Assembly (NCBI GenBank): GCA_963699445.1
Contig: CAVOTX010000010.1
Location: 258,453 to 322,452, forward strand
Length of the DNA: 64,000 nucleotides
Reading direction: 5' to 3'
Source: an uncultured Planctomycetia bacterium
Lineage (GTDB): Bacteria > Planctomycetota > Planctomycetia > Pirellulales > PALSA-1355
Each line of letters begins with the position of its first letter. The stretch's first letter is position 1. Below the pieces are notes generated by a model. That model worked only from the letters and a program-made list of their open reading frames with translations. It did not search any database and was not told the origin of the DNA. Positions 9,078 through 60,620 of the stretch are shown here, one piece after another. Position numbers and translations under genes: made by a program.

Positions 9078-10433
9078 TCACACTTCGATCCGCTTCCAGC
9101 CGCCGTGCTCGAATCGCCAGACGACGAGCAGGCAGCGGACTCCGAGATCCACGGCCATGGCGATCCAGGCACCGCGCACGCCCCAGTCCCCATGAATCGC
9201 CAGCCACCAGGCAAGCGGCAAGCGTACGCCCACAAAGCCGATGAACGTGAAGGCCAGCGGCCAGCGCGTGTCTCCGGCCCCGCGCAGCGCACCGGTGAGC
9301 ACTTGCAACAAGCCGAGCGGCACGAGCGGCAAGCGCCACGATGCGCAATAAACTCGCGGCCAACTGAGCCACCGCTTCTTGCTCGGCCGACACGAACCAG
9401 CCGGCCAGCCAGTCGCCGCCCAGAAATAGCCCGACCGTCGCGGCGAACATCAATGTCAGGTTGCAAGCGCCGGCCAGCCGCACGCTACGCATCGCCCGGC
9501 GCGAATCGCCCGCGCCCAGGAACTGCCCGACCAGCGTGCCGGCCGCCACCTGAAATGCATAGCCCGGCAGATAGGCGAACGATTCCATGCGCAGCGCCAC
9601 GCCATGCGCCGCTACGGCCAGCGTGCCCAACTGGTTGATCAGAGCCAGGAAGATCAACTGCAAGCTGATCAGCGACATCACGTCGGCCCCGCCGGGCAGC
9701 CCGATCCGCAGCAATCGCCGGATTAGGCCCAGGTCGGGTCGCATCAAATGCCAGCGCAGCTTGAGCCCCGCCCGGCCCCGCGACAGCACGGCCAGCGGCA
9801 CCAATCCACCGATGGCAAAACCGACCGATGTGCCGATCGCCACCCCATCCCAGCCGAGCCGCGGCAAAGGCCCCAGGCCCAGCAGCAGCGACCAGCTCAA
9901 GGCGATGTTCGTGGCATTGACCAACACCATCGAGACCAGGCCGGTGACCATATCGCCGGCCCCGTGCAGGCAGGCAATGATGACCGCCTGGAGCATGATG
10001 GCCGGCAGCATCGGCAGCAGGAATCGCAGATAGCGGCTCGCCAGGTCGGCCGCCTCGCCTTCCAGTTGCAGGGCCCAAACCAATCGTTCGCCCAGGGCCA
10101 GCGAGACCGCCGTGACGACCAGCGCCAGCACCGTGCCCACCAGCAGCGACTGATTCGTCACGCGGTTGGCCGCTTCGTAGTCGCCAGCGCCGATGAACCG
10201 GGCCACCATTGCGGTCGAGCCAATGGCGATCACCGAGAACAGGCCGCTAAAGGCCCAGAGCAAATAAGCCAGAGCGTCATCGCCGCCAGATGCGATTCGC
10301 TGAGGTAATGCCCGGCCAGCAGCGTGTCGGAGAATCCGACCAGCATGGCCAGCACTTGCTCGGCCAAAACCGGGCAAGCCAGCATCAAGAGCGGGCGCAG
10401 AATGCCAGGGCTATGAACGAGGGGCGAACGCAC
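9078..10433 (-). pseudogene. MATE-family efflux transporter, two frame breaks as assembled
   Basis: N-terminus ...LRPLLMLACPVLAEQVLAMLVGFSDTLLAGHY (ORF 10230..10649; candidate GTG start at 10433), body in ORF 9058..10377, C-terminus in ORF 9078..9332 (PLGLLQVLTGALRGAGDTRWPL...). Breaks near 10265 and 9335. Start uncertain. Confidence 0.8.
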
Positions 10434-10700
10434 GGAGGAGAGGAGTTCGAGGTTAGGGGGGAGCGAGCCGTAGAGTTTGTCTCCACGCTGCTCGGGCCGG
10501 AGTCCCGGTTGACAAACCACCAATCCACAGTTGCCTGACCAAGCGCGGGCAGCAGTTCTTTTTCTCGCCGCCCGAACGGCCGAGAACCATAAACGAAACA
10601 AAAGGCCGAGGGACCACGCGTGTCCCTCGGCCTTGAATAGGATTTGCAAAAACCGGCCCGAAAACTACGGGCATTTCGCTTGCGCGAACCACTCCGTCGC

Positions 10701-11973
10701 CTAGGCAAACAACTCCTTGATCACCTTGCCGCTGTTGGCAATCTTCATCGGGCGGCCGTTCTTGCTGGTGAAGGTGGTCTCCAGCGAGATCCCCAAGCGC
10801 TTTGCAGACCGAGGCCATGACGTCTTGCGACGAGTAGGGCTCGGTCTCGACGTTCGTGCCGTCGGAGTTGGTCTTGCCGACGGCGATGCCGCCCTTCATG
10901 CCGGCGCCGCCCACCACGACGCTCCAACTGCGAGCCCAATGGTCGCGGCCGCCGTGCCGTTGATCCGCGGGGTGCGGCCGAACTCGCCCATCCAAATGAT
11001 GGCCGTGTCTTGCAGCAGGCCGCGCTCGTCGAGGTCTTCGACCAAGGCGCTCATGGCCTTGTCCAATTCGGGCAGTTTCGTGTCGCCAGCGACTTGAAGT
11101 TGTTGGCGTGCGTGTCCCAGCCGCCCAGGTCGACCTCGACGAACGACACGCCCTGCTCGACCAGCCGGCGAGCCATCAAGCAGCCGCGGCCGAATCCGGT
11201 CTTGCCGTAGCGCTCCTGGACTTCGGTCGGCTCCTTGTCGACCTTGAAGGCTTCCATCTGCTTGCTGGTCATCAGGCTCAAGGTCTTGTCGAGGACCTTG
11301 GCGTGATCCTCGGCCGACCATTGCTTCGTCTTGCGGCCCGGGCTGACCTGCTTCACGAAGCCGTTTTCGATCGGCCGCAGCATCTCCATGCGCTGCATGA
11401 GCGCGATCGTCGCATGCCCATGTTCAGGTTGCGGACGTTGCCGTCCGAACCGACGACGAACGGGGCGTACGTCATGCCCAGGAAGCCGGGACCGACGCTG
11501 CCGCCGCCGACGGACACGAACGGCGGGATTTCCAGTCCGCATATCCGACTTGTACAACTCGTGGCTGATGACCGAGCCGTAGCCGGGATGCTCGATGTTC
11601 GGATTGGGCACATAGCCGGTGTGCATGTAGTACCGGCCGCGGCATGTGATCGGCTTCGCGGGTGCTCATCGAGCGGATGATGGCCATGCTTGTGCATTTG
11701 CTTGGCCATCAGCGGCATGTGCTCGCTGATCTGCTCGTCGCCGCTGGTTGCGATCGGCTTGAAAGGACCGCCGGTCGGAGCCCCCGGCTTGAGGTCCCAG
11801 ATGTCGATCGTGGCCGGGCCGCCGCCCATCCACAGCATGATGGCCGATTTGTGCCGCTTCTTCAGGTCGGCCGCATTGGCTGCCAGGGCATTGGTGAACG
11901 TGATGGCGGGCAAGGCCAGCGCCGAGGCGCCGGCCAAGTGCTGCATGAAATGCCGACGGGACATGCCTCGCAT
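10701..11973 (-). pseudogene. DUF1501-domain (sulfatase-like) protein with TAT-type signal, four or more frame breaks
   Basis: ATG at 11973 ([23 protein letters not shown]), then [22 protein letters not shown]..., [34 protein letters not shown].... The C-terminus ...GRPMKIANSGKVIKELFA ends at a stop at 10701-10703. Pieces lie in ORFs 11353..11973, 11051..11626, 10896..11321 and 10453..10995. Confidence 0.85.
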
Positions 11974-12020
11974 GCGGTAAGCAGCCTGAAAAATGAACTC
12001 ATGTCGATCTCACGTAAGGC

Positions 12021-13812
12021 TTAGTGATTCAAAATAAACTCGTTGCTGTTGAGCACGGCCCACCACACATCTTGCAATGCCGCCACCGAATCGCCACCGC
12101 GCAGGCAGCCATCAATTCGTTGGCGCCCGTCGATTTCGCTGGTCGCGGGCCTGCGCGACAAGGCGGCCAGGAACAAGTAATTGATCTTGGCCGCGTTGTT
12201 CAGTCGATCGTTCATCGCCACCTGTTCAAGAAAGCTTCCCTTGTCGGTGCCGATCGCTTTCTTGATCAAGTCGCCGTTCATCATCATCAGCGTCTGCGGA
12301 ATCGTGCCGTTGAACGTCGTGGTTTCGTCGTTCTCGTCGGTGCCGAAGGCGATCGTGAACTGTTTCAGCCATTCGAGCTTGTCTTTTCCTGCTCTTCGTA
12401 GCTGCCGCCCGTCTTTTGGGCCTCGGTCGCGGTCAAGCAGCGATTCGTACAGCTCTTCGGCCCGCATCTGGCGCAGATAGAAGTGGCTGAACATCGGCTT
12501 TTCGCCCAGCGCCGGATCGTCCTTCTTATTGGTCGGGCTGTACTGGCTCGACAGCGAATAGGGCTCGCTGAGCATGATCCAGCGGATCAGTTCCTTCAGG
12601 TCGTAGCTGTGCATACGGAATTCTTTGCCCAGCGCTTCGAGCAGCTCCGGATGCGTCGGCGGGTTGTGCGGCCCAATGTCGTCGATCGGCTTGGTAAAGC
12701 CATAGCCCAGGAAGTGCGCCCACAGGCGATTGACGATGGCTTTGGGCATGTAGTCCGAGCCGACGATCAGCCTGGCCAACTCGCTGCGGCGATCGACCTC
12801 TTGCAGGTAGCCGCTCGACTTGATCTTCGTGCCATCGACGAACACCGGATACGCGGCTTGCATCTTGCCGTTGCGCAGCTCGTAGAACAGCACCGCCTCG
12901 TCCGGGCGATTGTCCTCGCCGGCGAAATCCTGGTTGACCAATTCGACCGAGACATCCCGGTCCTTGGGCCGACGCGGCGCATCGCCCGGGTTTGCCGGAA
13001 GAAGGCGTTCATCTCCCAGAACTGATTTTGCTTCCAATCGTTGAACGGATGGTTGTGGCACTGCGTGCATTGCACCTGCAAGCCGAGGAAAATCTGCGAG
13101 GTCTTGGCCGTCGCCTGGACGCCGTTCTCTTCCAGCTTGGCGGTCAGGAAATTCGTGAAGCCGTTGAAACTTCTCTTCTCCCGGCTTGTTCACGCCGGTG
13201 GCCGAAACCAACTTGGTCACCATTTGATCGTAGGGCATGTTGCGCTTGAACGATTGACGCAGGGCTTGCTGCAGGCCTGCGCGGTTCGTCATTGCGATCC
13301 TGCTCGCCGCCGCCCGCGCGGCCGATCAGGACGTTGGTCCAGATCGTCGTCCAATTGCGTGCGTACTCTTCGATCGCTTTCTCGTCGTCGCCCAGCAAGC
13401 TGTTGACCAGTTGCAGCTTTTTGTCGGGCGCTCTGTCGGCCACGAAACGACCGCACTCTTCGACCGTGGGAATGCGACCCAGCAGATCCAGGTACAAACG
13501 ACGGACCCATTCTCCGTCCGTTGCCGGCAGCGAAGGGGTCAACTGATGCGACGCCCAACCCTCACGAATTTTCTCGTTGATGAGTTCCACTTGCGGAATG
13601 CCGTGCGAATTCGCCTTGGTGGCCAACGACTTCTTGGCCTTGGCCAATTCCGCCTTGCTGGCCGCATCCGCCTTGCTGGCCGACGCTTTACCGGCCGAAG
13701 GCTTGCCCGACGAGTCGTCCGTCGCGGCAAGAGCGATCGCACCGGCCGCCAGCACCGCCATCAGGCTACCCAAGCCCCACACCGAACGGCTCGTCCACCT
13801 CGAGCGCCTCAT
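12021..13812 (-). pseudogene. DUF1549/DUF1553 (PSD1-type) protein, five or more frame breaks
   Basis: ATG at 13812 (MRRSRWTSRSVWGLGSLMAVLAAG). DUF1549-like DGEWVRRLYLDLLGRIPT, central [27 protein letters not shown] (ORF 12767..13081), C-terminal ...ALQDVWWAVLNSNEFILNH. Sits directly upstream of the DUF1501 gene, the classic planctomycete pairing. Confidence 0.85.
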
Positions 13813-14233
13813 CGCGACCTCGTCCATTGCCGTAAGAAGAGAAATATCGAGTACTTGCGACCACTCATCCTAATCCATTACAAGGCCCCGTCAACACTCC
13901 TTGGGACCGCTGGCAATCTCAGCCCACGGTCGAATCCAACCGCTTCCGCATGTCCCCCTTTGCGTGCGGACTCACTTGCAGCAATCTGACCCGCGGCGCA
14001 CGATCAGGGCAGCCTTCGATCAGACGACTGCACCCTGGATCGAGGGACCCTGGATCGAGGGACGCCAGGGAACCCGTTGCCCGTCGGACGGCTCAGGAGT
14101 GGGCGCTATGATTCGCAGTGCCCGGCCGGATTTATTGCATGCGGGAATCTTTCCGTTGCGGCCAGCGCGCCGTCAATCGGCGGTGTATCGTTTTGCTACA
14201 ACTGGATCAAAACGCTACACACTAAAATGCAAC

Positions 14234-14277
14234 AGGCGAGTTGGACACGGTTGTTCCACCGCATGTCCAACTCGCCT
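14234..14277 (-). terminator. candidate intrinsic terminator/stable hairpin ~250 nt downstream of the ABC gene
   Basis: Perfect 14-bp stem aggcgagttggaca / tgtccaactcgcct with a 16-nt loop. On the minus strand it is followed by tgttgcatttta. Confidence 0.3.
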
Positions 14278-14529
14278 TTGGTTGTGCAGAAATCGGCTAC
14301 AAAAGCCGGCTCGACGCATGCCTCAACTGTTCCGTTGTGCGCCGTAAGGCTTTATAGCTCCCTGATTTCCGTGCGACAAGTTGCAGACGCCCCCTCGCTA
14401 ACCGGCCCCAGACAGCATTGCTCTTCTCTGTTTCGGCCCCGAGTCGAAAGACTGCAGGTCGAAGACTGCCAGAAGCCACGCATTTGCCCTTTTAAGCAAA
14501 AGGTGTGCCAAGGACGAATGGCGGCCTTT

Positions 14530-16527
14530 TCAGGCGGTTTCTCGAAACTGCAGTTCGTAGAGCCGGCGGTAGGTATCGCAGCTCGCAACGAGTTGATCGT
14601 GGCTGCCAACCGCGACGATCCGGCCGTTCTGCATGACCACAATGCGGTCGGCCAAGGCCAACGTCGCCAGACGATGAGTGATGATGATGGTCGTCCGATT
14701 TCGCGTAAAATTCTCCAGCACACGATGAATCAACTGTTCGCTTTCCAGATCGATCTGACTGGTGGCCTCGTCAAGGATCAGGATCGCCGGGTCGCGGAGG
14801 ATGGCCCGGGCCAAGGCAATGCGTTGCCGCTGTCCGCCCGATAGTCGGCTGCCCTGGCTGCCCACGATGGTTTCATAGCCGTTTTCCAAGCGCGTTTCGA
14901 TGAATTTATGCGCATGGGCTTGCTTGGCGGCCTCGATCACGGCCTCGCGCGGCGCCGTCGGGTCGCCGTAGCGGATGTTGTTCAAGACGGTATCGTCGAA
15001 CAGCAGCGTTTCCTGGGCCACGATGCCAATCTGACTGCGTAGTTGCCGCATCCGCACCTCGCGCAGATCGACGCCGTCGAGCTTCACGCAGCCCACGGTT
15101 GGATCGAAGAACCGCGGGACCAGGTTGGCCAGCGTGCTCTTACCGCAACCGTTCGGTCCGACAATCGCCACGGTTTCGCCGGACGCGATCCGCAAATTGA
15201 TGCCCTCGAGGACCGGATGTCCGGGTTGATAGCCGAAGGTAACCTCCTCGAAGACCAGATCGCGGGCATGGCGTCCGAGGAGGCGTGGCTGCACGGGATC
15301 GGCAACGGCCGGCTCGCGGTCGAGCAATTGATAGACACGGTCGCTGGCGGCGGCGGCCCGCTGCAAGCGGTTGAAGACCTCCGACAGTTTGCGGGCCGGA
15401 TCGCTCGTGCCGGCCAGGAACCCGAAAAAGACCAAGATCGAGCTGAGCGTCAGCGGGCGATCGCACATCCGCACGCCGAACAAGTGGGTCGCCTGGTTGA
15501 GCACCAGGTAGGCACCGACGAGAATCGCCACGCAAATCGTGAAGATCCCCATGACCTCGGTCACCGGGTTGACCAGGGCGTCGAACATGGCGATCCGCAT
15601 TCCCTTGCGAAAGCACTGTTTGCTGACGACGTGAAACTTGCGCCGCTCGAATCGCTCCATGGTGAACGCTTTAACGACTTTGATGCCGCCGAAGGTCTCC
15701 ATCAAGACGTTGTACAGCGACGACATTTGCTCCATGGCCCGGCGGTTGGCCTTCTTGAGAGTCCGCGCCAGCCGGGCGATCAGGTATCCGGCCAGCGGAG
15801 CCACCAAGAGCGACAGCAGCAGCAGTTGCCAACACACCCAGGCCGCACCGACCAGGCAGGCGATCATTTTCAGCGGCTCGCGAATCGCGCGGCCGAAAAC
15901 GGTTTGCACGCCCTGCCCGACGCTGTCCAGGTCGTACGTAAAGCGGCTGATGAGGTCGCTGGTGCCGCTTTCGTTGAAGGTCGCCAGCTCCAGCCGCAGC
16001 GTCCGCCGATAGAACTTCTTGCGCAGGTCGAACACCGCCAGTTGGGCCAGGCGATCGACCATAAACTGCCCGAGCGTAAGAAACGTATCTTTGACCACGG
16101 TGCCCACCATCAACGCGGCAATCAGCGCCACCAGCGTCAGGAACGGATCCGTCGGCAGGTAGCGGTCGATGGGCGGCTTGAGCCATTGATAGCGGGCAAG
16201 CGCTTGCTGTTCGGCGGCCAGCCGCACGTCCAGGCGACCGATCTCGACGTCCAGCAGCTCCTGCTCGGCAGCGTTGGCCGTGCGCAGTTTCGCTGCCCGA
16301 GTCTCGAGCTCTCCTTGGAACTCGGCGATCTTTCGCTGCGAGTCGGCGATCTGGCCGTTCACCCAGTGTCCGAGCGATTCCTCCTGCAAGGTGACTTCGA
16401 CGATCGGGTAAACCGCGCCGATGTTGCCTCCCCAGAGCACGGCGACCACCAGCGAACTGAACACGCTGGCCGCGACCGTCCGGCGATAGCGGAGGCAGAG
16501 TCTGAGCGTTCGGACAAAGTTGTTCAT
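14530..16527 (-). CDS. ABC transporter, fused permease/ATP-binding (MsbA-like exporter) with long coiled-coil insert after TM1
   Basis: ORF 14530..16926; likely ATG at 16527 (MNNFVRTLRLCLRYRR...). Walker A GPNGCGKST, signature LSGGQRQR, Walker B ILILDEATS. No frame break over 1998 nt. Confidence 0.9.
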   Translation of the reverse strand: MNNFVRTLRLCLRYRRTVAASVFSSLVVAVLWGGNIGAVYPIVEVTLQEESLGHWVNGQIADSQRKIAEFQGELETRAAKLRTANAAEQELLDVEIGRLDVRLAAEQQALARYQWLKPPIDRYLPTDPFLTLVALIAALMVGTVVKDTFLTLGQFMVDRLAQLAVFDLRKKFYRRTLRLELATFNESGTSDLISRFTYDLDSVGQGVQTVFGRAIREPLKMIACLVGAAWVCWQLLLLSLLVAPLAGYLIARLARTLKKANRRAMEQMSSLYNVLMETFGGIKVVKAFTMERFERRKFHVVSKQCFRKGMRIAMFDALVNPVTEVMGIFTICVAILVGAYLVLNQATHLFGVRMCDRPLTLSSILVFFGFLAGTSDPARKLSEVFNRLQRAAAASDRVYQLLDREPAVADPVQPRLLGRHARDLVFEEVTFGYQPGHPVLEGINLRIASGETVAIVGPNGCGKSTLANLVPRFFDPTVGCVKLDGVDLREVRMRQLRSQIGIVAQETLLFDDTVLNNIRYGDPTAPREAVIEAAKQAHAHKFIETRLENGYETIVGSQGSRLSGGQRQRIALARAILRDPAILILDEATSQIDLESEQLIHRVLENFTRNRTTIIITHRLATLALADRIVVMQNGRIVAVGSHDQLVASCDTYRRLYELQFRETA

Positions 16528-18889: not shown

Positions 18890-19043
18890 GCCGCGGCGCA
18901 ACTTGTATCAACGACTGCGAGCGCTCGGCACCGGCCGGGCGCTCGCAGTTTCGTTTCGATCCCGGGCAGTTCCCGGCGCGAATGTTTCGCCGCCGGCACG
19001 GATCGAGCTGCGAATTGCCACGGCCACCCCCGGCGACGCATCA

Positions 19044-21248
19044 TTGAACGGCGTCGATCGCCACGACGTCCACGTGCGGGGTGTTCGGCAGTGTGATGCT
19101 GCTGATCGTCTTGGTGCTGTCGACGTCGAAGACGTAGCCGTAAACGTAGAACGTGCGGTTATCGGTCACGCCGCTGGACACGTTGCGATACACCATCGTG
19201 ACTGCGGTCGACTCGCCCGCGTAGCCCTGCGGCGCGTACCAATCGCTCAGGTTCTGCGTAAAGGTCGCCGACGTGCCGTCGGTGTAATGGACGACAAAGA
19301 CCTGAGCGGTCTGATTGCCTTCGACTGCGGTCGCGAGCATTTCCACCTTGGAGAAATTGCCGGTCGGCAAGGCGATGGTCTGGCCGACCGCTTGAACGAC
19401 ATTGTTCGATCCGACCGGTGCAATTGCGAAGCTGACGCCGTTCCAGGTCTGACTGTTGCCCAACAGCGTGCCGCTCAGGGCATTGCCCACGCCGTCCAAT
19501 CCGCCTGTGAACGCGGTCCCATTGGCGGTGATGCCCACCAGGTTCAGCGCGGCGGAAAGATCGACTTTCGTCGTCGTTCCGGAACTCGGCGCCGTCGCGG
19601 AGACCTCCGTCGAACTGGGGCTGCTTGCCGGGCCGTTGAGAGCTTGAATCACGTAGTAGTATGCGTTGCCCGGCACGACGCTCGTGTCCTGATAGCTCGT
19701 GGCGGTTGCCGGCAGCGGAATGGCGTTCAGCGGCGTTGTCGATTCGCCACCGCCGAGGGTGCCGCGAAAGACGTTGAATCCGGTCACCGTTTCGTCGGGT
19801 GCCGCCCACGACAAACTGATTTGGCCGGAGGAGCCGGCGCTGGCGGCGAGCCCTGTGGGGGCGGCCACCGCCGCAACCGCGTTGATCGCCAGGACCTCCA
19901 CATTCTTATCGTTGGGGAGCGTGATGAAACTGACAGTCTTGGACCGGTCGACCGGGATGATATATCCGTACACGTCGAAGGTCCGGTTATCCGTGCTGCC
20001 GCCGGACGTATTTCGATAGGCCGTCGTCACTGCCACGTATTCGCCGGCGTACGACTGCGGCGTGTGCCAGTCACTGATGCTTTGAGTGTATGTCGTCGAA
20101 GTGCCATCGGTATAGTTGACGGTAAAGGTCTGGTTGATCTGGTTGCCGTTGACCGCTGTTGCCAGCAAGTCCAGTTGCGCATACCGACCCTGCGGCAGAG
20201 TGACGGTCTGGCCAGTGGCCTGAACGACGTTGTTGGACCCGGCGGCCCCGATGACGAACGGCACGGCGTCCCAGGTCTGGCTGGTGCCGAGCAGGTTCGC
20301 CGACAGGGCATTGCCCTCGCCGTCCAACCCGCCTGTAAACTTGGCTCCGTTGCTGGTGATGCCGGTGAGGTTGAACGCGCCAGCCAGATCGGCTTGCACG
20401 TTGCCCGTATTATCGGTGATCGCGGCCGAAGCTTCGTTGCTGTCGGCGCTGGCTGCCGGTCCGTTCAGAGCCCGCACGAAGTAATAGTAGGTATTGCCCG
20501 GCACCACGTTGGCGTCCAGGAAGGTTGTGTCGCTCGGCGACAAGGGCGTGGCGTTGAGCGGGGTCGCCAATTCTCCGCCGCTGGCCGTTCCACGATAGAC
20601 GTTGTAGCCGGTGATATTGCCGGTGGCGGCCGTCCATGACAGCTCGATTCCGCTGCCCCCGCCTTCCTGAGTGAGCTGGAGACTGAAGTTCGTCTGGGCG
20701 GCCACGTTCGTCGGCGGGGCCACGGCGGCGAGGGTGCTGATGGCGAGCAGCTCGACATCTTTGTCGTTGGGCAGCGTGATGCTGCTCACCGTCTTGGAGC
20801 CGTCGAGCTCGAGGGAATAGCCGTAAACGTTGAAGTTGCGGTTGTCGGCGCCGCCGCCGGCCGTGTTCCGATGCGTGGTTTGCACGGCCACCGATTCGCC
20901 GGCGAAGTTCTGCGGCGTGTACCAGTCGCTCAGGCTCTGCGTCAGGGTGGTGGACGTCCCGTCGCTGTAGTTGACCGTGAACACCTGATTGCGCTGGTTG
21001 CCTTCGACAGCGGTCGCCAAGAACTCGATCTCGGTGTATTGGCCCGAGGGCAGGGCGATTGTCTGACCGGCGGACTGAATGACATTGTTCGATCCGGCGG
21101 CGCCGAGGGTGAAGTTGACTCCATTCCAGACCTGGCCGGTGCCCAGCACGTTTGCCGATAGCGCATTGCCCACGCCGTCCAACCCGCCGGTGAACTTGGC
21201 CCCGTTGGCAGTGATGCCCATCAGGTTGAATGCGCCGGACAGGTCGAC
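19044..21248 (-). repeat. three tandem coding repeat units (about 855, 828 and 522 nt)
   Basis: Units start at about 21248, 20393 and 19565 with DL[SA]GAFNL.GIT.NGA.FTGGLDG.GNALS...SDW..PQ..AGE..AV....RN...G..DNR.F.VYGY......K.V..ITLPN. Units 1 and 2 add an FN3-like module (G[YF]NV[YF]RGT..GGE...PLNA.PL......D..VVPGN.YYY). Confidence 0.8.
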
Positions 21249-22640
21249 GCTTTGCACGGCTTGAGTGCCCAACAGGCTGGCGAAGTCGTTGCTGGCGCCA
21301 TTGGTGCCGGACGTCAGGGTAATGGCCGACAGCATGTTGCTCTGCGCGGTTCCGCTGGCCTGGCTGCCGACCGAGGCAGTGCCGGCGACGTAGCCGGTAG
21401 GCTGCGTTTCGCTGAGCGTGTAGCTGCCGGGCCGCAGGCCGGTAAAGCTGTACGAACCGTCGGCCACGGTGGTGGTGGTCAGGCTGATCGCAGCGCCCAG
21501 ATCGTTGGTCCCGGTCAGGGCGATTGCGACTCCGGGCAGCGCCGTCTCGCCCGGGTCAAAGGCGCCGTTGGCGTTGGCATCGACGTAGGCATATCCCGAC
21601 AGGCTCGCCGGTTGCAACACCGCAAAGTCGTTGCCGGTGCCATTGACGCCAAGTCCGAGTTGGATATTCGACAAGACGCCGCTAGCGACCGTTCCGCTCT
21701 GGCTGCCGATCGCATCCGTGCCGAGAAATTCGCCGGCCTGCAAGGTCTCGCTGAGCGAGTAAGTTCCGGGCACGAGATTGGCGAAGCTGTAAGCGCCGTT
21801 GCTGGCGCTGGTCGTCGTCAGGTCGACGGCGTTGCCGTGATCGTCGGTGCCGGTCAAGGTGACGGTGGCCCCCGAGACGCCCGCCTCGCCGGAATCGAAC
21901 GCGCCATTGTCGTTGGCGTCGACGTACACGTAGCCCGAGAGACTGGCGGGCGCCAGATTTGCGAAGTCGTTGTCGACTCCATTGGTGCCGGAAACGACGG
22001 TGATGTTCGAAATCAAGCGAACGCCAAGCGTTCCGCCTTGGGTGCCGACGGAGTCGATTCCGTCGGTATCGCCAGACGGGCGAGTCTCGGTCAGCGTGTA
22101 CGTGCCGGGCCGCAGACTGCTGAAGCTGTAAGCGCCGCCCGTGGTGGTCGTGGTCGTCGAATTGATCGTTGCGCCAAGTCGTTGGTGCCGGTCAAGGTGA
22201 CGGTGGCCCCGACGATACCCGCCTCGCCGGCGTCGAACGTGCCGTTGTCGTTGGCGTCGACATAGACGTAGCCCGAAAGGCTGCCGGGCGCCAGTTCGGC
22301 AAAATCATTTCCCGTGCCGGTCGTGCCGGAGGTCAAGGCAATGTCCGCAATCATCCCGTTGCCGAGCGTTCCGCCCTGGCTGCCGATGGAACTGGTGCCG
22401 CTGAGGTAATTGGACGGCTGGGTTTCGGTCAACGTGTACGAGCCCGGGCGCAGGTCGATGAAGCTGTACGAGCCATCGGCAGCGGTCGTGGCGGTCAGGC
22501 TGACCGCGTCACCCAGGTCGTTGGTGCCGGTCAGGGTGATGCCGACGCCGGACAGCGGCGTCTCGCCCGTGTCGAAGGTGCCGTTGTCGTTGGCGTCGAC
22601 GTACACGTATCCCGACAAGCTGCTGGGCGTGGGATCCGTA
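21249..22640 (-). repeat. four ~115-aa SdrD-B-like/Cna-B-like coding repeats
   Basis: Recurrent LSGY[VA]YVDAN[DA]NG[AT]FD.GE....G..[IV].LTGT[ND]D.G.....T.T...DG.Y.F..L.PG.Y.L.ET.P, starting near 22620, 22270, 21940 and 21600. Confidence 0.65.
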
Positions 22641-24315: not shown

Positions 24316-25557
24316 ATGCGCTGCGATTGGCTAATGCTGGCTCTGCTATTGAGTGGCTCGACGACCCGATTCGCCTCGGCCGACCAGGCACAGGATATCG
24401 CCGCTCTGCGCAAGGCGGGAGGAATCGTCACGCTGGACGATGCCGACCGCGTGGTGGCGGTCAATCTTCGCGACGCCCAGTTGACCGACCTGGACGTGAA
24501 GCGGCTCGAAGGCTTTACGAACCTGAACAAGCTGGAATTCTTGGGCTCCGACATCAACGACAAGTCGCTGGACAGCGTGGCCAAGCTCACGAATCTCAAG
24601 GACCTGGTCCTCGAAAATACCGAAATCACCAACGACGGACTGGCCAAACTCAAGCCGCTGCAGAATTTGCGGCTGCTCAATCTGCGCCGCTGCACGTATC
24701 TGTCGGACGACGGGCTCGTGCAACTCCAAGCGCTGGGCAACCTCGAACAGCTGCTGTTGCTTTACAACAACTTCTCGAACGCCGGCATGGTCCATCTGAC
24801 GACTCTCGCAAAGCTGCGCATGCTCGACCTGCGCGGCTGCGTGCTGATCTCCGACGACGGACTGCTGGAAATCAAGAAGCTGCCCAACCTCGAGCGGCTC
24901 AAGTTGCGCAATTCACAGGTCAGCGACGACGGCCTGAAGCAGATTGCGGAAATGAAAAAGCTCAAGGGGTTGATCCTCGAAGATGCCGCGATCAGCGACC
25001 GCGGGCTGGTCCACCTGAAATCGATGACCAAGCTCGACGAACTCAACCTGATGCGCAACAATATCACCGACGCGGGGCTGGAAAATCTGGCCGGCCTCGA
25101 ACTGCTCAAACGCGTCGAGCTGCGCGGAGCCCGGCTCAACGGCTCGGGCCTGGCAAGTCTCAAAAACCTCAGCAAGCTCACCTTGCTCGATATCGCCGAA
25201 ACGCCCGTCGATGACGCCGGTTTGGCGAATCTCAAAAACCTCACCAGCCTGGAACGCCTCGATTTATGGGGCACGCAAATCACCGACCAAGGGCTCGAGA
25301 ACCTCCGCGGCCTGACCAACCTGAATTGGCTCAGCCTGCAAAACACTCGGATTACCGACGCCGGGCTGGAAAATCTCGAACCGCTCGCCAAACTGGACGA
25401 TCTCGATCTGCACACGACGAAAATCAGCGACGCCGGCCTGGCCCACCTCGCCGGGCTCGCCAAACTGGCCAAGCTCGACCTCAGCTTCACCAAGGTGACC
25501 GCCGCCGGCCAGCGGGAGTTTCAGCAGTCGCACCCGAATGTGAAGATCACCCGTTAG
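24316..25557 (+). CDS. secreted leucine-rich-repeat (RNI-like LRR) protein
   Basis: Intact 413-aa ORF, ATG at 24316, signal MRCDWLMLALLLSGSTTRFASA, then about 14 repeats of ~24 aa (L..L..L..L.L..T.ITDAGL..L). Confidence 0.85.
   Translation: MRCDWLMLALLLSGSTTRFASADQAQDIAALRKAGGIVTLDDADRVVAVNLRDAQLTDLDVKRLEGFTNLNKLEFLGSDINDKSLDSVAKLTNLKDLVLENTEITNDGLAKLKPLQNLRLLNLRRCTYLSDDGLVQLQALGNLEQLLLLYNNFSNAGMVHLTTLAKLRMLDLRGCVLISDDGLLEIKKLPNLERLKLRNSQVSDDGLKQIAEMKKLKGLILEDAAISDRGLVHLKSMTKLDELNLMRNNITDAGLENLAGLELLKRVELRGARLNGSGLASLKNLSKLTLLDIAETPVDDAGLANLKNLTSLERLDLWGTQITDQGLENLRGLTNLNWLSLQNTRITDAGLENLEPLAKLDDLDLHTTKISDAGLAHLAGLAKLAKLDLSFTKVTAAGQREFQQSHPNVKITR
24466..25516 (+). repeat. ~72-nt periodic LRR coding repeats (about 14 units)
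   Basis: Protein-level periodicity, e.g. LKNLTSLERLDLWGTQITDQGLEN / LRGLTNLNWLSLQNTRITDAGLEN / LEPLAKLDDLDLHTTKISDAGLAH. Confidence 0.7.
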
Positions 25558-42641: not shown

Positions 42642-42751
42642 GGTTGGTGAACCTTGAGGTTAAGTGCGTCGAAATCGAGCCGGCCGGCGCCGCCACCGGC
42701 ACATCACCGCGGGGAGAGCAAACCATCGTTGCCGAGCGCGGCGTCGTCGGC

Positions 42752-42814
42752 CACGGCGACATTCGTCACGGCGTCATTCGTCACGGCGTCATTCGTCACG
42801 GCGTCATTCGTCAC
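42752..42814. repeat. 15-bp tandem repeat (cacggcgtcattcgt) x4.2
   Basis: Units at 42752, 42767, 42782 and 42797, plus a partial one. The first unit has one mismatch. The repeat overlaps the stop codon (42804-42806) of the zinc-ribbon/GYF gene. Confidence 0.9.
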
Positions 42815-46302: not shown

Positions 46303-46400
46303 CGTTATTCACGCTTCGGGAAATGCACAGCCGGCCGCGCCACAACCGCTCCATCCCATTATCGGCCATCAGTCCAGCGGTGGCAACGGGGGGAGATAAA

Positions 46401-46493
46401 GGATGAAGGCAGAAGGATGAAAACGGACGAAGCGGGGACTCGGCTACATCCTCCCTGCCCGTTTTCATCCTTCATCCTTCTGCCTTCATCCTT
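46401..46493. repeat. long imperfect palindrome (purine-rich arm / pyrimidine-rich arm)
   Basis: ggatgaaggcagaaggatgaaaacgg (46401-46426) pairs with ccgttttcatcc[ttcatcc]ttctgccttcatcc (46459-46493), with a 32-nt spacer. It lies between the divergent cytochrome and apbE starts. Confidence 0.8.
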
Positions 46494-53963: not shown

Positions 53964-54993
53964 TCATGTTCGAACTTCGCCGCTGGTTTTTCCACGTGGC
54001 CGCCGAACTCGAACCGCATGGCCGACAGCAGCTTGTCGGCAAAGTCGGCCTCGCCGCGCGAGGCGAATCGCTCGTACAGCGCAGTCGTCAGCACGGGCGC
54101 CGGCACCGCCTCGTCGATCGCCGCTTTGATCGTCCAGCGTCCTTCGCCCGAATCGGACACGCGGCCGGCGAAGTTCGCCAGCGCCGGATCCTTGAGCAAG
54201 GCCTGCGGCCGTCAGATCCAGCAGCCAGGACGCAATGACGCTGCCGCGCCGCCAGACTTCGGCCACGTCGCGCAGGTTGAATTCGTACTGGTAATCCTCG
54301 GGATGCCGCAACGGCGTGGTTTCGGCGTCGGACGCGTGCGTTTGTTTGCCGACGTTGGCATGCTGCAGAATCGCCATTCCCTCGGCATAGGCCGCCATGA
54401 TGCCGTACTCGATGCCGTTATGCACCATCTTGACGAAGTGCCCGGCGCCGTTGGGTCCGCAATGCAAGTAACCGTGTTCGGCGGTGCCGCGATGCTTGTC
54501 GCGGCCGGGCGTCCGCGGGGCCGAGTCGATCGGCGGAGCCAGCGTGGCGAAGATCGGATCCAGATGTTTGACGATCGCTTCCGATCCGCCGATCATCTGG
54601 CAATATCCGCGCTCCAGTCCCCACACGCCGCCGCTGGTGCCGACGTCGACATACTCGATGCCTTGCCGTTTGAGTTCGGCCGCCCGGCGGATGTCGTCGA
54701 TGTAGTAGGAGTTTCCGCCGTCGATCAGGATGTCGCCCTTGGCGAGCAGCGGAGTCAGCTCGGCCAGCGTCTGGTCGACGACGGCCGCGGGGACCATCAG
54801 CCACACGGCGCGGGGCTGGGAGAGCTTTTGGATCAGGTCGGCCAATGAAGCCGCCCCGACAGCGCCTTCTTTGGCCAGCCCTGCGACGGCGCTCGGCATG
54901 GATGTCGTAGGCGACGCACTGATGTCCGGCTTGCATCAATCGGCGGACCATGTTGGCGCCCATCCGACCCAAGCCCAGCATACCGAGTTGCAC
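53964..54993 (-). pseudogene. gnd: 6-phosphogluconate dehydrogenase, short (~330 aa) decarboxylating type; two or more frame breaks; 3' end uncertain
   Basis: AGGAG 7 nt upstream of the GTG at 54993: [30 protein letters not shown]. Body in ORF 53964..54899 ([13 protein letters not shown]...[19 protein letters not shown]...[16 protein letters not shown]). Tail in ORF 52856..54199 ([24 protein letters not shown]...[12 protein letters not shown]). Confidence 0.8.
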
Positions 54994-55151
54994 GGGAACG
55001 CTCCTATTATGTGGACTTCTTGGCAAACGCAGAACCCCAAGGCCGCCGCAGCTATGATGACGCACGCCCGGCCGGTTGCCAATCCGAAATGCCGGCTCGT
55101 TAGAGCGTCACATAAAGACCTTTGCGCCCTAGAACGACGTGCCGCAATAGG

Positions 55152-56039
55152 TTAATGGCAACAGCCTCCGCGCGAGGCGGTGGCAGCGGAGCAGCATTGA
55201 CGGCCGGAACCTCCTTGGACAATTTGGTCGCCGGCTTCGGTGGTCGCATTGCCGCCTGCCGCGCGGCTGCTGCGACGCAGCAGTATAAAACACACGACGG
55301 CCGCGGCCAAACGCACGCCGCGGATGGTTTGATCGCCCGCGCCCGCGGCGCAGACCCGCCTCGGCACCCTGCTCGGCGGCAATTGCGGCGACTCCCACGG
55401 CCAATGCCTTAGCAACCGCCCAGCGGCCGCCTTTCTTGCCCACGGCGACCAAGATCCCGCCGCCGGCGAACAATCCCGCGACCGATCCGGCCGTCTCGAC
55501 AGCTTCCATGCGGGTTATGAGGCGGTCCATCGACGCGTTGTGCTCGTGCAGCCGCTGGTTGATCTGATAGCGCAGCCGATTCGATCGCTTGGCCTGCTCG
55601 GGGTCGGAGAACAAGGGCAGCCCGAGTGCCGCAGTCCTGGGCAACGCGGCCAAACGGTTGTAGGCGACGTCGGGCATGTCCGCGGCCAACCATGCCTCGC
55701 CCGCGCTTTCCAGCGCGTCGTTGTACAGAAAGATTTGCTCCTCGATCTGGTTGACTTCATCGTCGATGTCGGCCTCTTGTCCCACTTCGATGGCGTCGAG
55801 CTTCTCGCCCAGCACCTCCAACAGCCGCTTGATCTCGGCAAAATGTCCTTTGGCCTTGGCCAGTTTTTCATGAAAGAATGCCTCGGCACTCAAATTCAAA
55901 GCCGAGCGTTTCGGTTCGGAAAAAGGACCCGCCTGCCGTTCGACCGGCGGACCGCTCACGTTCGGGATCACGCTCTGCACGAACGCGCCCAGTTTGAGCC
56001 AGGCTCGCCTACGCTTCCTCGTCGCCGTCGGGTTCATAA
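55152..56039 (-). CDS. orphan toxin-like C-terminal cassette (helical region + glycine-zipper hydrophobic segment); frame and 3' end uncertain
   Basis: ORF 55129..56094: (MNPTATRKRRRAWLKL)GAFVQSVIPNVSGPPVERQAGPF...HFAEIKRLLEVLGEKLDAIEVGQEADIDDEVNQIEEQIFLYNDALE...AGSVAGLFAGGGILVAVGKKGGRWAVAKALAVGVAAIAAEQGAEAG. Downstream of about 55390 the plausible reading moves to ORF 55152..55415. It shares the junction motif with 57526..57993. Confidence 0.4.
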
Positions 56040-56420
56040 GTAAGGTCGGCAAAATCGTCGACGTATCGCTCCTTCGAGTACATCGCGCGCACAACCGCCA
56101 CTGCCCATGTACCAGCCGGCCAGCTCGCCACGCCCCTCGGCTGACAGATCAACAACCTTTCCATTTGAGGCAGTGAATGAAAGATGCAGCAGTTCTTGGT
56201 CTATTGCCAGAAGCAGGTAAAAGACAGCATCGTCCACGATGTCGGGTGCTGCTACGCTCACAACTGCCGCACCCGTACCCTCGCATGCCGCCTGCCTCCA
56301 ACGCCTCGCGACGGGTCCGTTCACATCGGCCCGTAGTTCCATATCGCTGCTTCGGATAGCAGCGTCTCTGACTTGTTCGACAAGTATCCGGGCGAATTCG
56401 TCTATTTCGAAAGTCGGCAT
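56009..56420 (-). CDS. small acidic cytoplasmic protein, candidate immunity protein; one frame break
   Basis: The ATG at 56420 lies 1 nt after the inferred upstream stop (56422-56424). MPTFEIDEFARILVEQVRDAAIRSSDMELRADVNGPV...VFYLLLAIDQELLHLSFTASNGKVVDLSAEGRGELAGWYMGS (ORF 56034..56429). After a break near 56100 it reads ...AMYSKERYVDDFADLTYEPDGDEEA, stop at 56009. Confidence 0.45.
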
Positions 56421-56421
56421 A

Positions 56422-57539
56422 TCATCCACCCCATGGAATTCTTGTTGGTTCCGATACTCCGGCGTCTTTTACGCGCCTTGATGGCTCGCCGCACCGTTGC
56501 GCGGGCTGCGTCGGCATCCATATTGCATATTGCCACGGATCAGCGCGTCGGTCTCGATCTTTTCCACTGCTTTCCACGTCAGTTTGCGCCGGTTCTTGCG
56601 AAGGCCCGATATAGTATTTGTTCGGCGCCTGTGACGATGGCGTGCCTCACGCCAAGTCTCGCCAATTCCGCGTTTGAAACAGCCGGTGCAGCATTAGCAT
56701 CGTAGCCGGCGGCGCCAGAGAACGCACTTTTCGCTGGCACATGATGCCCGCCGCCTTGGCCTCCGTACGGGGCTAAATCGGCAGCTTTCGCGGTATCTTG
56801 CTTCGTGGCGCCTTTGGACACGCTCGGCGCGATCTTCGTGACTTTGATCTTAGCACCGCCCAGACCGTTTGCCGACAATGTGGCCGGGTCGAAGTCCAAG
56901 CTGATGCGGTAGCCGGTGGAAGTCTCGATGACCGCGTGCGCCGTGCCCGCGGCGTCGACAGCCGCTTTTCCCAAGGCGATCAGCAGACCGCCGTTATCGG
57001 CGAGAAACCGCGCCGTTTCTGCGTCGACGCCGGCGGCTTCCAGCACGGCTTGAATGCCGCGCGCGACCAGGCGCGGTGCTCTTCGCCCGTGGCCAGATCG
57101 GCGCCTGCCAGCGCCGTTTGTTCTGCGCCGCCGGCAACTTCCAGCGTGCCCAGCATCGGGGCACCTTCGACGATTCCGTTGATGCCACCGATGATGGCAA
57201 ACATGCCGCCTTGAAAGCGGCTGCTCGCCCCGCGCACGCGCATCACGTCGGCGTGCCGAATCTTTTCCCGTGCGGCCAGCGCGGCGGCTCCTTGCTCGGG
57301 AGCTTGACCGCGGTTGAGTTCAACGAATTCCCAGTGCGGCGTGTCGAATGCCGGCTGGACCAGGCGGAAATGGGCCGTGTCGACGCCGCCGTTTTTGCGC
57401 CGAGGCGAACGAACGCTTCGACGCCCAGTGCGTTGCTGCCGTGGCCCAAGTGCGCATCCGGTCGGCCCGTCGACAAGCGCGCCAGCCGCCCGCACGCGGT
57501 GCATCGCGTCAAGGCTGACGTTTTTCTACTTGGTGCCAA
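56422..57539 (-). pseudogene. variable toxin-like module with GGGHHVPAKS motif; three or more frame breaks; possibly continuous with 57526..57993
   Basis: Pieces: ...RLARLSTGRPDAHLGHGSNALGVEAFVRLGAK (ORF 57243..57539), GGVDTAHFRLVQPAFDTPHWEFVELNRGQ...GGMFAIIGGINGIVEGAPMLGTLEVAGG (ORF 56980..57504), LEAAGVDAETARFLADNGGLLIALGKAAVD...APYGGQGGGHHVPAKSAFSGAAGYDANAAPAVSNAELARLGVRHAIVTGAEQILYRAF (ORF 56579..57046). The tail between 56422 and 56579 is readable only by further hopping. Confidence 0.4.
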
Positions 57540-57993
57540 GAATGCGGATTATTTGTTGCGTCTCGACCGTGTAGTCACCCGGGTTGATGCGGATGGTGCT
57601 GGACGGTCGCGATCCCGTGGGAGGCTTCGCTTCGCCCGGCCCGCTGGCGTTCGGGATCACGCTCTGCACGAACGCGCCGTCGGCGGCGATCTGCGAATGC
57701 ACGCGCCGCGCGGCGGGCTGGACTGCGGATCGGCTGGCACTCAGAGCCCGCGATTCGATGATCCGGGCGATCGTGTCGATCGAGTGCGGCTTGATCCCGA
57801 TGCCGCGCTCGGGCGTCTCTTCAACAAAGCGATCGAGCTGCTCCGGCCAGTCGTCGGGAATCGGTCCGGCCAGAATGCCATTGAGCCACTGGTCGAGCGA
57901 ATCGCGGAATGCTTTCAGACGTTGCCTGATGACGTCGTCGATCTTTTCGAGAACCGCCCGGACGACCGGTTCCCACGGGCTCTTGCCGTCCAT
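57526..57993 (-). CDS. constant N-terminal module ending in the GAFVQSVIPNASGP junction motif
   Basis: GGAGGA 4 nt upstream of the ATG at 57993. Intact 155-aa ORF: MDGKSPWEPVVRAVLEKIDDVIRQRLKAFRDSLDQWLNGILAG...HSQIAADGAFVQSVIPNASGPGEAKPPTGSRPSSTIRINPGDYTVETQQIIRILGTK. No signal peptide. Confidence 0.6.
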   Translation of the reverse strand: MDGKSPWEPVVRAVLEKIDDVIRQRLKAFRDSLDQWLNGILAGPIPDDWPEQLDRFVEETPERGIGIKPHSIDTIARIIESRALSASRSAVQPAARRVHSQIAADGAFVQSVIPNASGPGEAKPPTGSRPSSTIRINPGDYTVETQQIIRILGTK

Positions 57994-58080: not shown

Positions 58081-59044
58081 TTACCGGCTAAATCTTGCAC
58101 ACGCGCGGTACTGCGACTGCCGCATGGCCTCGAGTTCGGATAGTTCGCCCAACCGCTCGTCGACCACGCTCTCGACGACCGACCGGGCCGCGGTCTCCGC
58201 AAGCGATGCGCCACTCTTTTGCAGCAGCCACCGCGACCTCGTCGGCGTCTGCCAGATAAATCTCTAGCGTCGAAGGCATGGCATCGCCAGATTGCACGCC
58301 GTCGGGGCCCGTCAGGTTCAAAGAGGCCGAAGAGTCGCCGGCTAATTCGTCGCTCGGGGGCGAGTCCGTGTCGTCGCCAGCCGCTTGCTGCCAATCGGGC
58401 ATTGGGTCATCAATCGATGGCCCGACAGTGACCTCGAAACCCTGGTCATCACCCGTCGGCGAAACCGGCGCCTGGATCAAACCGGCCGACGCGGGTTCGG
58501 ACCAGTCGACGTCGGCCGCCGATGGGGCAAGGACCGGTGGCTGCGGCGCCCCGCCTGGCGCCGCCTGTGAAAGCGCCGTCGGCAAAATATCGGCGCGGAC
58601 CGACGGCCTCATGACCAGGTCCGACTCGTAAACCGACGTGTCCAGTGGCGCGGTCGCGGGATCGTCGGCCGAGACGCTGGATAAGAAACTGCCCGCGACG
58701 ATCGACCGCTCGAAGTGCAGACTGCCCGGCGCCGCCGGCGATCCGGCGTCGGAACCCGATGGGCCCAGCGCAGAATCCGCAGGCAGCGCCGACGTGGCCA
58801 TCGGCAATGGCTCGGCCGGTTCGGGATCGCCGAGCATTTCGGGTCCGGCATCCTGCGGCGCCGATTCGCCCGGGGTCTCGTCAGGTGGCGCCGCGTCGTC
58901 GGTCGTTTGGCCCAGCAGCGTGCGCAGCGAGTCGGCAAGCTGCCGCTTCTCGGCCTCGCGGTCCACGGGCGGCGGCAAATGCTGGCGGCCAGCTTCCAGT
59001 GCGGCGTCGCGGGCGGTGGGAAATTCTTCCGGTTCGAACATCAT
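58081..59044 (-). CDS. acidic Pro/Ala/Ser-rich low-complexity protein with helical C-terminus; one frame break
   Basis: AAGGAG just upstream of the ATGATG at 59044/59041: MMFEPEEFPTARDAALEAGRQHLPPPVDREAEKRQLADSL... (ORF 58088..59185). After ...EIYLADADEVAVAAAKE the sensible frame is ...ASLAETAARSVVESVVDERLGELSELEAMRQSQYRACARFSR, stop at 58081. Break near 58215. Confidence 0.5.
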
Positions 59045-59434: not shown

Positions 59435-60430
59435 TCAGTCGTGCGTCGATTCGATCGGCAGCCGGACGACTTCAGCCGAACCCAGGACCGAGTCGAGCCG
59501 CGTGCCCGGCAGATTGCTGCCGCGGCGCACGTAGGCCAAAGCCAACGGCGCAGCCAGTCGCGGCGACGAGGCGGCGCTGGTCACATGCCCCACGACAACC
59601 CCGGCCGCCGTCAGGTCGAGTCCCGAGGGCACCGCGGCCTGGTTGTCGAATCGCACGCCGACGAGCGTCTGGTTGACGTGTCCCAGGGCGTCGATCCGGG
59701 CGACGGTCTCCTGTCCCAGGTAACAGCCCTTGGTGAAGCTGATCGCCCGATCGTCGCGGGCCAGTTCCTGCGGCAGGTTCTTGTCGGAGATATCCGGGCC
59801 GTACCAGGGAAATCCGGCCTCGATGCGCCGCGCCTCGAAGGCCGCCGAGCCGACCCGGCGAGTCCCGGCCCGGACGAGAACCTCTCCCATCCGCTCGGAG
59901 TCCGCGCGGCGGCAATCGAGCAAGAACCCCAGCGGTCCGGCAATGTCGACTCGGCGCAGCCAGACTTCGCGGCCGTCGATTTGGCTCTGGCGACTGGCCC
60001 AGACTTCTTGCGGGCAAGCGCCCCCGATCAAGCCGGCGAGCAGCGATTCCGCCCGCGGCCCGGCGAGCAGCCACTCGGACCAGTCGAGCGAGCGGTCGGT
60101 CAGCGTGACCTTTTCGCGGATCAAATAACGGTCGAGATGTGCGAGGATCTTTTCGGCCTCGCCGGGCACCGTTTCCAGTATGAGCGAATCGGGGCCGGAA
60201 AAGACGAGCACGTGGGCGAGGATCTTGCCCTGCACGTTGGTCAGGAACGTCTCGCAGCCGGCTCCGGGGGACAGCTTGCGGATTTCATTGGTACACAAGT
60301 TGTGCAGGAAGCGAGCCCGATCCTCGCCGCCAATCTCGATCAGCGTGCGCTTCCCGAAATCGACCAGCCCGGCCGCGGTGCTCAGGGCTTCGTACTCTGC
60401 CAGAAAGTCGTGATCGGGGACGATTGCCAT
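59435..60430 (-). CDS. ygfZ: folate-binding YgfZ/GcvT-like protein
   Basis: Intact 331-aa ORF, ATG at 60430. GLVDFGKRTLIEIGGEDRARFLHNLCTNEI and the YgfZ-type signature SFTKGCYLGQETVARI. Confidence 0.85.
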   Translation of the reverse strand: MAIVPDHDFLAEYEALSTAAGLVDFGKRTLIEIGGEDRARFLHNLCTNEIRKLSPGAGCETFLTNVQGKILAHVLVFSGPDSLILETVPGEAEKILAHLDRYLIREKVTLTDRSLDWSEWLLAGPRAESLLAGLIGGACPQEVWASRQSQIDGREVWLRRVDIAGPLGFLLDCRRADSERMGEVLVRAGTRRVGSAAFEARRIEAGFPWYGPDISDKNLPQELARDDRAISFTKGCYLGQETVARIDALGHVNQTLVGVRFDNQAAVPSGLDLTAAGVVVGHVTSAASSPRLAAPLALAYVRRGSNLPGTRLDSVLGSAEVVRLPIESTHD

Positions 60431-60474: not shown

Positions 60475-60620
60475 GACGCAAAGAAGGATAATTGAACCAC
60501 AGAGTCGCAGAGGCAGAGAGAATAAGGAACGATGGTATTTGTGTGCAGTTACTCTTTTCCGTCCTCTCTGTGCCTCTGTGACTCTGTGGTTAGATTCCTT
60601 TCCGCTTCCCTCTTCGCGTC
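60475..60620. repeat. ~145-nt nested imperfect palindrome (REP-like)
   Basis: Inner arms aaccacagagtcgcagaggcagagag (60495-60520) and ctctctgtgcctctgtgactctgtggtt (60564-60591). Outer arms gacgcaaagaagg (60475-60487) and ccctcttcgcgtc (60608-60620). It lies between the LarA-like stop and the ygfZ start. Confidence 0.8.

Follow-up and report, generated by a model that had tools for sequence, protein, structure and literature searches.

A short identical tract shared by a polymorphic toxin gene and an orphan module in an uncultured planctomycete

How does a run of 31 identical nucleotides come to stand at two sites of one toxin locus, amid coding sequence that is otherwise unrelated? The question is posed by a 64,000-nucleotide stretch of contig CAVOTX010000010.1 from an uncultured Planctomycetia bacterium (the window), in which the run, here termed J1, lies once inside a toxin gene, B, and once at the head of an orphan module behind the immunity gene of B. 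A sequence-only reading had proposed that J1 marks the junction between the constant and variable parts of the toxin and that it resembles a recombination substrate for cassette exchange. Sequence comparisons place B in a family of polymorphic toxins, for the most part nucleases, from Planctomycetota, and the two J1 copies are probably the DNA footprint of a conserved motif that ends the constant N-terminal region, the current module, toxin domain and immunity gene having entered by recombination at J1.

The repeat and its two settings

In a search of the whole window, the exact 31-mer CGTTCGGGATCACGCTCTGCACGAACGCGCC is found on the plus strand at 55959-55989 and 57648-57678, precisely the two same-strand sites that had been described, and no third copy appears in the 64 kb when 3 mismatches are allowed; the self-comparison suggested for finding further copies returns only these two. 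None of 100 dinucleotide shuffles yields any 31-mer match. A repeat finder widens J1 to 42 nt (55948-55989 and 57637-57678, family D12), of which 39 are identical, and the ten flanking nucleotides said to agree at 7/10 (ggcccgctgg and ggaccgctca) do so. The copies are spaced by 1689 nt (3 x 563 nt, or 563 codons), and therefore share the same codon phase; on the minus strand both read GAFVQSVIPN(A/V)SGP, as first noted. That similarity stops on either side holds strictly in the coding-upstream direction, where identity ends sharply at the Gly codon (AADG against LKLG), whereas in the coding-downstream direction it fades over ~11 nt before the sequences become unrelated.

The J1 motif is not a generic repeat, an objection that had been anticipated. 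A degenerate back-translation of GAFVQSVIPN, which covers the exact 31-mer, hits a single site among 185,579 species-representative genomes, and this site lies in a homologous toxin gene, at L002 (L denotes related loci, and P proteins); the metagenome collection scanned with the same degenerate motif and with a profile gave no match.

Both copies belong to a toxin island extending from ~59.05 to 55.1 kb on the minus strand, between a 331-aa gene and a gnd-like gene, in which gene A, toxin B, the immunity gene, J1 again and middle module 3, the orphan, follow one another. The elements that bear on the repeat are listed below.

56422..57993, minus strand: toxin gene B, delimited by tblastn with the intact homologue P0006 and with P0017
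57993 to ~57709, minus strand: N-terminal domain (N-domain) of B, followed by a linker and then J1
57648..57678 (core; 42-nt repeat 57637-57678), minus strand: J1 copy 1, encoding GAFVQSVIPNASGP within toxin gene B
~57630-56864, minus strand: middle module of B, type 1
56863-56828, minus strand: second junction of B, LGGAKIKVTKIA
56827-56425, minus strand: C-terminal domain of B, GGGHHVPAKSAF...TRIPWGG, with the TGA stop at 56422-56424
56009..56420, minus strand: immunity gene, with one frameshift near 56092
55959..55989 (core; 42-nt repeat 55948-55989), minus strand: J1 copy 2, encoding GAFVQSVIPNVSGP, the head of the orphan module
55272..55989, minus strand: orphan module, consisting of J1 and a middle module of type 3, Gly-rich and hydrophobic, with a frameshift near 55349

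The first copy lies within a protein whose layout is best read from P0006, a 551-aa homologue encoded on the frameshift-free contig L003, where a middle module of ~250 residues is followed by the conserved LGGAKIKVTKIA and then by the C-terminal domain. In the predicted structure of B, the first ~95 residues form three confident helices with a predicted local distance difference test score (pLDDT) above 90, and residues 92-125, J1 included, are of low confidence or disordered; in the full-length model of P0006, residues 114-144, comprising the motif and the stretch after it, have a pLDDT below 50. Copy 1 is accordingly modelled as sitting in a disordered linker just after the three-helix N-domain. 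At the second junction, P0005, which matches the window at 95-98% identity as far as the end of the middle module, turns unrelated directly after KIKVTKIA (LGGAKIKVTKIA), and seven other homologues (P0006 to P0012) carry still other C-terminal domains at this point, so that the toxin domains proper are exchanged at the distal junction. J1 exchanges the larger unit of middle module plus toxin, which makes a two-tier module layout.

As assembled, B is interrupted by a TAG codon at 57526-57528 and by about six homopolymer-type frameshifts. The frameshifts of the toxin locus are mostly single-base length changes in short runs (A5 for A6, A3 for A4, A4 for A3, GG, CC), the remainder lying in CG-repeat or non-repeat contexts, and correcting each of them restores sequence like that of the homologues. 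Housekeeping genes of the window are split as well, namely MatE (9081-9332 / 9337-10263), PSCyt2-PSD1 (12971-13168 / 12024-12965) and gnd, which runs over three frames (53964-55065). Since these genes are affected too and correction brings homology back, the toxin-locus frameshifts are probably long-read consensus errors and not signs of decay; pseudogene decay as their source was rejected, the housekeeping genes being split too and the errors falling mainly in base runs. After correction, both J1 copies read in frame with their modules, as had been assumed. The TAG replaces a Trp (TGG) that is conserved in P0006, P0008, P0010 and P0011, adjoins an A5 run, and recurs as the same truncation in a related assembly, where P0004 ends in ...ILGTK; the codon may reflect a true nonsense mutation or else a systematic miscalling of bases. 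The locus also carries a warning, in that such loci resemble pseudogenes, probably wrongly, in long-read assemblies rich in homopolymer errors.

The second copy starts 19 nt past the stop codon of the immunity gene. No N-domain homology is found upstream of it, the place being taken by the 3′ end of the immunity gene and the 19-nt spacer, and no toxin domain or immunity gene follows. The orphan, for which the source annotation has an open reading frame (ORF; P0025, 56037-55132), is thus a 5′-truncated fragment downstream of the main gene that keeps the junction sequence. With the N-domain-fused module of L004 B1 (P0026) it shares 60% identity at the protein level and 70% at the DNA level, the homology ending after the middle module at 55272; the orphan region has no match to the HNH-HHH domain or the immunity gene of L004 B1, and at most 56 codons are left before gnd, which starts at 55065. 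The type 3 module that the orphan represents is the commonest middle module of the family, with at least 24 representatives.

The ORF between the two copies had been read as a putative immunity gene, and this identification gains support: its ATG lies 2 nt past the stop of B, and over 109 aa its product shares 59% identity (E 3e-36) with that of the gene immediately following P0016, an Rhs-type toxin of Phycisphaerales on L007 with the same C-terminal domain. That an immunity homologue follows the same domain on an Rhs toxin points to a mobile toxin/immunity pair. The C-terminal domain (PYGG.GGGHHVPAKSAF...TRIPWG) has no match in Pfam or the Protein Data Bank (PDB), and is also found on P0014, P0016, P0017, P0018, P0020 and P0024. 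Its GGGHH motif suggests an HNH/EndoVII-type nuclease, and together with the ~120-aa immunity partner it appears, from the sequences compared, to form an uncatalogued toxin/immunity pair.

The junction across the toxin family

The family to which B is assigned is defined by the N-domain. Run against 1.84 billion proteins, a profile of this domain gathers 186 clusters (at 50% identity), in which the domain nearly always lies at residues 1-120 of proteins of 200-570 aa. No model matches the N-domain in Pfam, NCBIfam or PHROG, and a Foldseek search against the PDB only gave no significant neighbour. Named carriers are Planctomycetaceae, Pirellulales and Phycisphaerales metagenome-assembled genomes. 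When 114 members were scanned for C-terminal Pfam toxin domains, ten different families were found and a substantial minority of the proteins carried one: WHH (10), Colicin-DNase (4), LHH (3), CDI_toxin_EC869_like (3), Tox-REase-5 (3), AHH (2), and HNH-HHH, SHH, GHH and Tox-REase-2 once each. The family thereby displays the features of polymorphic toxins, a constant N-terminal region with diverse and unrelated toxin domains at the C-terminus, an immunity gene immediately downstream (in the window and at L003 and L005, with Imm70 directly after the toxin in L003 at 111 bits and three SUKH genes in L005), and a toxin/immunity pair held in common with other scaffolds, among them the Rhs-core protein P0017 (TIGR03696) and the PT-HINT protein P0014. 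While the arrangement of a main gene and an orphan is familiar, the family itself, with its three-helix N-domain, FVxSVxPxVSGP motif and partner gene A, is new.

Within this family, J1 copy 1 does end a conserved N-terminal module after which the homologues differ, so that the proposed constant/variable junction is borne out. The motif of copy 1 is conserved in P0003, P0004, P0006, P0027 and P0028; close homologues keep GAFVQSVIP(N/S/K), and distant members, with ~20-35% N-domain identity, keep FVxSVxP[NDE][VA]SGP, with at least seven unrelated sequences following it. Middle modules of type 1 are present in the window B, P0004 and P0006, type 2 in L001 and in copy 1 of L002, and type 3 in the window orphan and L004 B1. 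In L004 B1, GAFVQSVIPNASGPPEG links an N-domain in frame to the type 3 module, which continues into Tox-HNH-HHH (78 bits).

Three further breakpoints fall at the same place. The two N-domain copies of L002 are 91% identical in DNA up to the motif, where homology ends; L004 B1 and B3 are 96.5% identical, with homology ending 15 codons from the motif Phe; and the orthologous B1 genes of L002 and L004 are 88% identical up to the motif and then carry different modules. In sliding windows, DNA identity between orthologues peaks at 0.82-0.83 at J1, or about 5 differences in 30 nt, and has its minimum of 0.43-0.55 just upstream, in the linker, which makes the motif an island of similarity. The cassette-exchange reading is strengthened by the L004 fusion and by these breakpoints, with the qualification that J1 is the first of two module boundaries.

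The L002 and L004 loci have peculiarities of their own. At L002 3993-4420 and L004 16088-16447, an extra gene A and N-domain copy are cut a few codons past the motif; these terminal copies (the second or third of their loci) abut an antisense GATase gene and form a head without a tail, the reverse of the orphan. The L004 array (7597-16500) spans 9 kb between polA and the GATase gene and holds three A-B units. It also contains the Tox-HNH-HHH toxin, an ORF weakly resembling CdiI, and a paralogue of B whose C-terminus is FQVHHILEQ and whose divergent N-domain lacks the motif.

Origin of the identical tract

Among orthologues that encode an unchanged peptide, 5-6 of the 31 nucleotides differ, all synonymously, against 0 of 31 between the two window copies, which argues that the window copies share recent nucleotide ancestry, gained either in the crossover that would have built the structure or by later gene conversion. 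In the nearest relative, P0002, J1 has two synonymous differences, as deduced from a frameshifted translation, and P0004 has two residue changes in the motif. It is highly improbable that the identity is a coincidence, in which the same conserved peptide in two genes would have settled on the same codons under a strong bias in the GC content of third codon positions (GC3). The protein-level constraint on the motif throughout the family and a genome GC3 of ~0.8-0.85 would both favour such convergence, but orthologues of similar GC content diverge as described, with the nearest relative at 2; at an identity of 0.83 per site, 31 straight matches have an expectation of ~0.003.

Recombination at J1, the origin that we consider probable, could have proceeded as follows. 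A unit of 1689 nt that includes one J1, and consists of module 1, the toxin domain and the immunity gene, would enter by homologous recombination at J1, either through a double crossover with donor DNA that already bears the joint of immunity gene and J1, or through a single crossover with a circular, J1-bounded unit. The older module, module 3, would be displaced downstream, in the way that has been suggested for the orphans of Rhs and CDI systems, and would lose its toxin end there, and the perfect 31-nt tract would reflect that crossover or a subsequent gene conversion. Since copies 1 and 2 have the same codon phase, a crossover from one to the other would excise 1689 nt and leave the N-domain joined to module 3 in the correct frame, in a product without a toxin domain.

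A rather unlikely alternative is that nothing was imported and the orphan is what remains of a tandem A-B paralogue, from which a deletion removed the second gene A and the N-domain up to J1, the identity being due to gene conversion. Tandem paralogy does occur in the family, L004 and L002 carrying two or three A-B copies with N-domain regions 91-96% identical. For the window, though, the deletion would have had to stop, by coincidence, at the motif's first codon and to leave no N-domain bases, and different modules would still have to be joined at J1, which is itself an exchange; the alternative overlaps with recombination at J1 more than it excludes it.

The arrangement is very unlikely to be an artefact in which the assembler joined, one behind the other, two strain variants that differ in the module following J1. 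Such an error is conceivable in an error-rich, probably long-read, assembly of metagenome type, the more so as polymorphic toxin loci are typically heterogeneous among strains and the orphan has no counterpart among the proteins of related contigs. However, no repeat that would mislead an assembler is present where the end of the immunity gene joins J1 copy 2, the 31-42 nt of J1 are far below the length of long reads, and the arrangement agrees with the orphan layout of other toxin families.

J1 also has the outward form of a site for a dedicated recombinase (att or attC-like), being a short, sharply bounded direct repeat that flanks a gene cassette and contains an inverted repeat of 6-7 bp (CGTTCG...CGAACG). 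A hairpin or att-like site within the 31-mer was considered and rejected, the DNA hairpin having folding energies that match those of shuffled sequences (z = -0.04 to +0.67). The island ORFs match no recombinase family, the flanking genes are of housekeeping type (gnd by Pfam, the ygfZ-like gene by sequence only), and J1 is coding and is conserved as a peptide even in members with ~25% N-domain identity. Site-specific recombination is on these grounds extremely improbable.

Several observations nonetheless weigh against recombination at J1, and they temper the cassette-exchange reading as well. The orphan is not a full cassette and, lacking a toxin domain and an immunity gene, yields no new weapon by exchange here; it is also the only true orphan, in the sense of a J1 without an N-domain, among all loci examined. 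The shared tract of 31-42 nt lies near the shortest homology with which RecA-type exchange is reported to proceed in Escherichia coli, and with so short a tract a crossover would be rare. It is far shorter, at 31 nt perfect or 42 nt at 93%, than the Rhs tract of 522 bp at 95% (PMC3967940). In addition, the assembly is rich in indels, and the TAG in B, if real, would make the main toxin itself inactive.

Relation to known systems and neighbouring genes

The closest parallel is found in the Rhs toxins. In Salmonella Typhimurium STM0291/STM0292, an orphan Rhs-CT becomes fused to the main gene by recombination over 522 bp of 95% identity, and other strains carry the orphan Rhs module as part of full-length genes (Koskiniemi et al. 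2014, PMC3967940). The window locus likewise has a full toxin gene with an immunity gene, followed by a 5′-truncated fragment that has only the junction-proximal sequence in common with it, and the module of its orphan is likewise present on full-length genes elsewhere, as in L004. It differs in the length of the shared tract (31-42 nt), in the motif, which is FVxSVxPxVSGP and not DPxGL, and in the absence of a toxin domain and immunity gene from the orphan. RHS core or YD repeats have no match in P0006, P0011, P0027 or P0028; the RHS core is confined to P0017, which is unrelated but carries the same C-terminal domain.

Orphan arrays of CdiA-CT/CdiI, and the VENN motif of contact-dependent inhibition (CDI), were reportedly described by Poole et al. 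in 2011 and Willett et al. in 2015. In CdiA-CT, a short motif bounds a bipartite variable region that consists of an entry or middle domain and then the toxin domain, and this entry-domain and toxin-domain layout is paralleled in the window by J1, the middle module, the second junction and the toxin. In contrast to CDI, the family proteins have 450-570 aa, no signal peptide visible in the sequence, and a motif different from VENN, and no Pfam match to haemagglutinin repeats or CdiB was found in the window protein or the family members scanned.

The LXG/WXG toxins of type VII secretion systems (T7SS) and MafB are likewise medium-sized proteins that have an N-terminal helical trafficking domain and nuclease C-termini that vary, and whose genes stand between small accessory genes just ahead and immunity genes behind; mobile T7SS-like systems of the WXG type are described for planctomycetes (Zhang et al. 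2012, PMC3482391). The window N-domain differs as a ~95-residue three-helix unit that has no significant PDB neighbour, and the Pfam domains LXG, WXG100 and MafB_N have no match in the window protein or the 114 members, a distant structural kinship being possible in that the structural comparison covered the PDB only, by Foldseek. No EssC-type ATPase gene is present at the family loci examined, and no secretion genes were seen in the window, which was only sampled beyond the island.

With integrons, finally, the locus has in common a gene unit between direct repeats of a short site, for which a circular intermediate is conceivable, the 1689-nt unit being inserted by one crossover; it differs in that J1 is inside a reading frame, is conserved as a peptide and has no attC-like structure. 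No integrase was identified in the island or the two flanking genes, the rest of the window having been only sampled. A more speculative proposal, to which we attach little credence, is that the N-domain, gene A and FVxSVxPxVSGP belong to an undescribed Planctomycetota route of toxin export or processing, in which J1 would be both a recognition or cleavage site and the boundary of recombinase-free circular units. If this were true, J1-module-toxin-immunity units would move as circles by single homologous crossovers, a recombinase-free analogue of the integron cassette.

Polymorphic toxins shape the competition between related bacteria, and the ways in which they diversify are understood in detail for the Rhs, CDI and type VII systems of Proteobacteria and Firmicutes, but hardly in Planctomycetota. 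The locus offers a two-tier layout, with one swap after the N-domain and another before the toxin, and an uncatalogued toxin domain of GGGHH type with its immunity partner; the demarcation motif and the N-domain profile allow the family to be catalogued.

The remaining features of the island and its edges are as follows.

58081..59044, minus strand: gene A, acidic and Pro/Ala-rich with a C-terminal helix, and one homopolymer frameshift near 58235
59435..60430, minus strand: intact 331-aa gene, labelled ygfZ-like from its sequence only, at the proximal edge of the island
53964..55065, minus strand: gnd-like housekeeping gene with Pfam NAD_binding_2 and 6PGD over three frames, at the distal edge

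The product of gene A is probably disordered. The gene is homologous to genes upstream of B in L001, L002, L003 and L004 and within the close subfamily always lies directly upstream of B; it has no match in Pfam, NCBIfam or PHROG, and no detectable homology to the acidic gene that precedes P0011, a distant family member. Two small conserved genes, C and D, stand upstream of gene A in L001-L004 and are absent from the window locus; they match nothing in Pfam or PHROG. The small upstream genes lie at ~3660-4510 in L001, ~130-520 in L002, 74-463 in L003 and ~7600-8454 in L004, and one of them has CxxC...CWxCP motifs. The 331-aa protein has no cluster mate at an identity of at least 90%, and P0001, P0002, P0004 and P0005 may come either from orthologous loci of different assemblies or from paralogues within this genome. 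A scan of the island for promoters and terminators gave nothing above background, and a phage origin was rejected, no relatives having been found among viral contigs. Between the orphan and gnd, the last ~19 codons ahead of the stop at the distal end of the island (55103-55160, ...GRKGLYVTL*) resemble L001 7465-7521 (...ARKGLYVTF*; tblastn E 0.007), which is the C-terminus of an ORF downstream of the L001 toxin; the tail may be left over from an immunity gene of earlier date, or a chance match.

Elsewhere in the window, intergenic inverted repeats are present at 46395-46493 and 60490-60596, one with arms of 23-32 nt that are perfect over 23 nt (AAGGATGAAGGCAGAAGGATGAA) and the other with 40-nt arms at 83%. 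A large repetitive surface-type protein (SdrD_B, fn3) with DNA repeats of 828-855 nt and 339 nt is encoded at 19014-22621, a leucine-rich repeat protein with 72-nt repeats at 24424-25548, and a 15-nt tandem repeat occupies 42739-42813.

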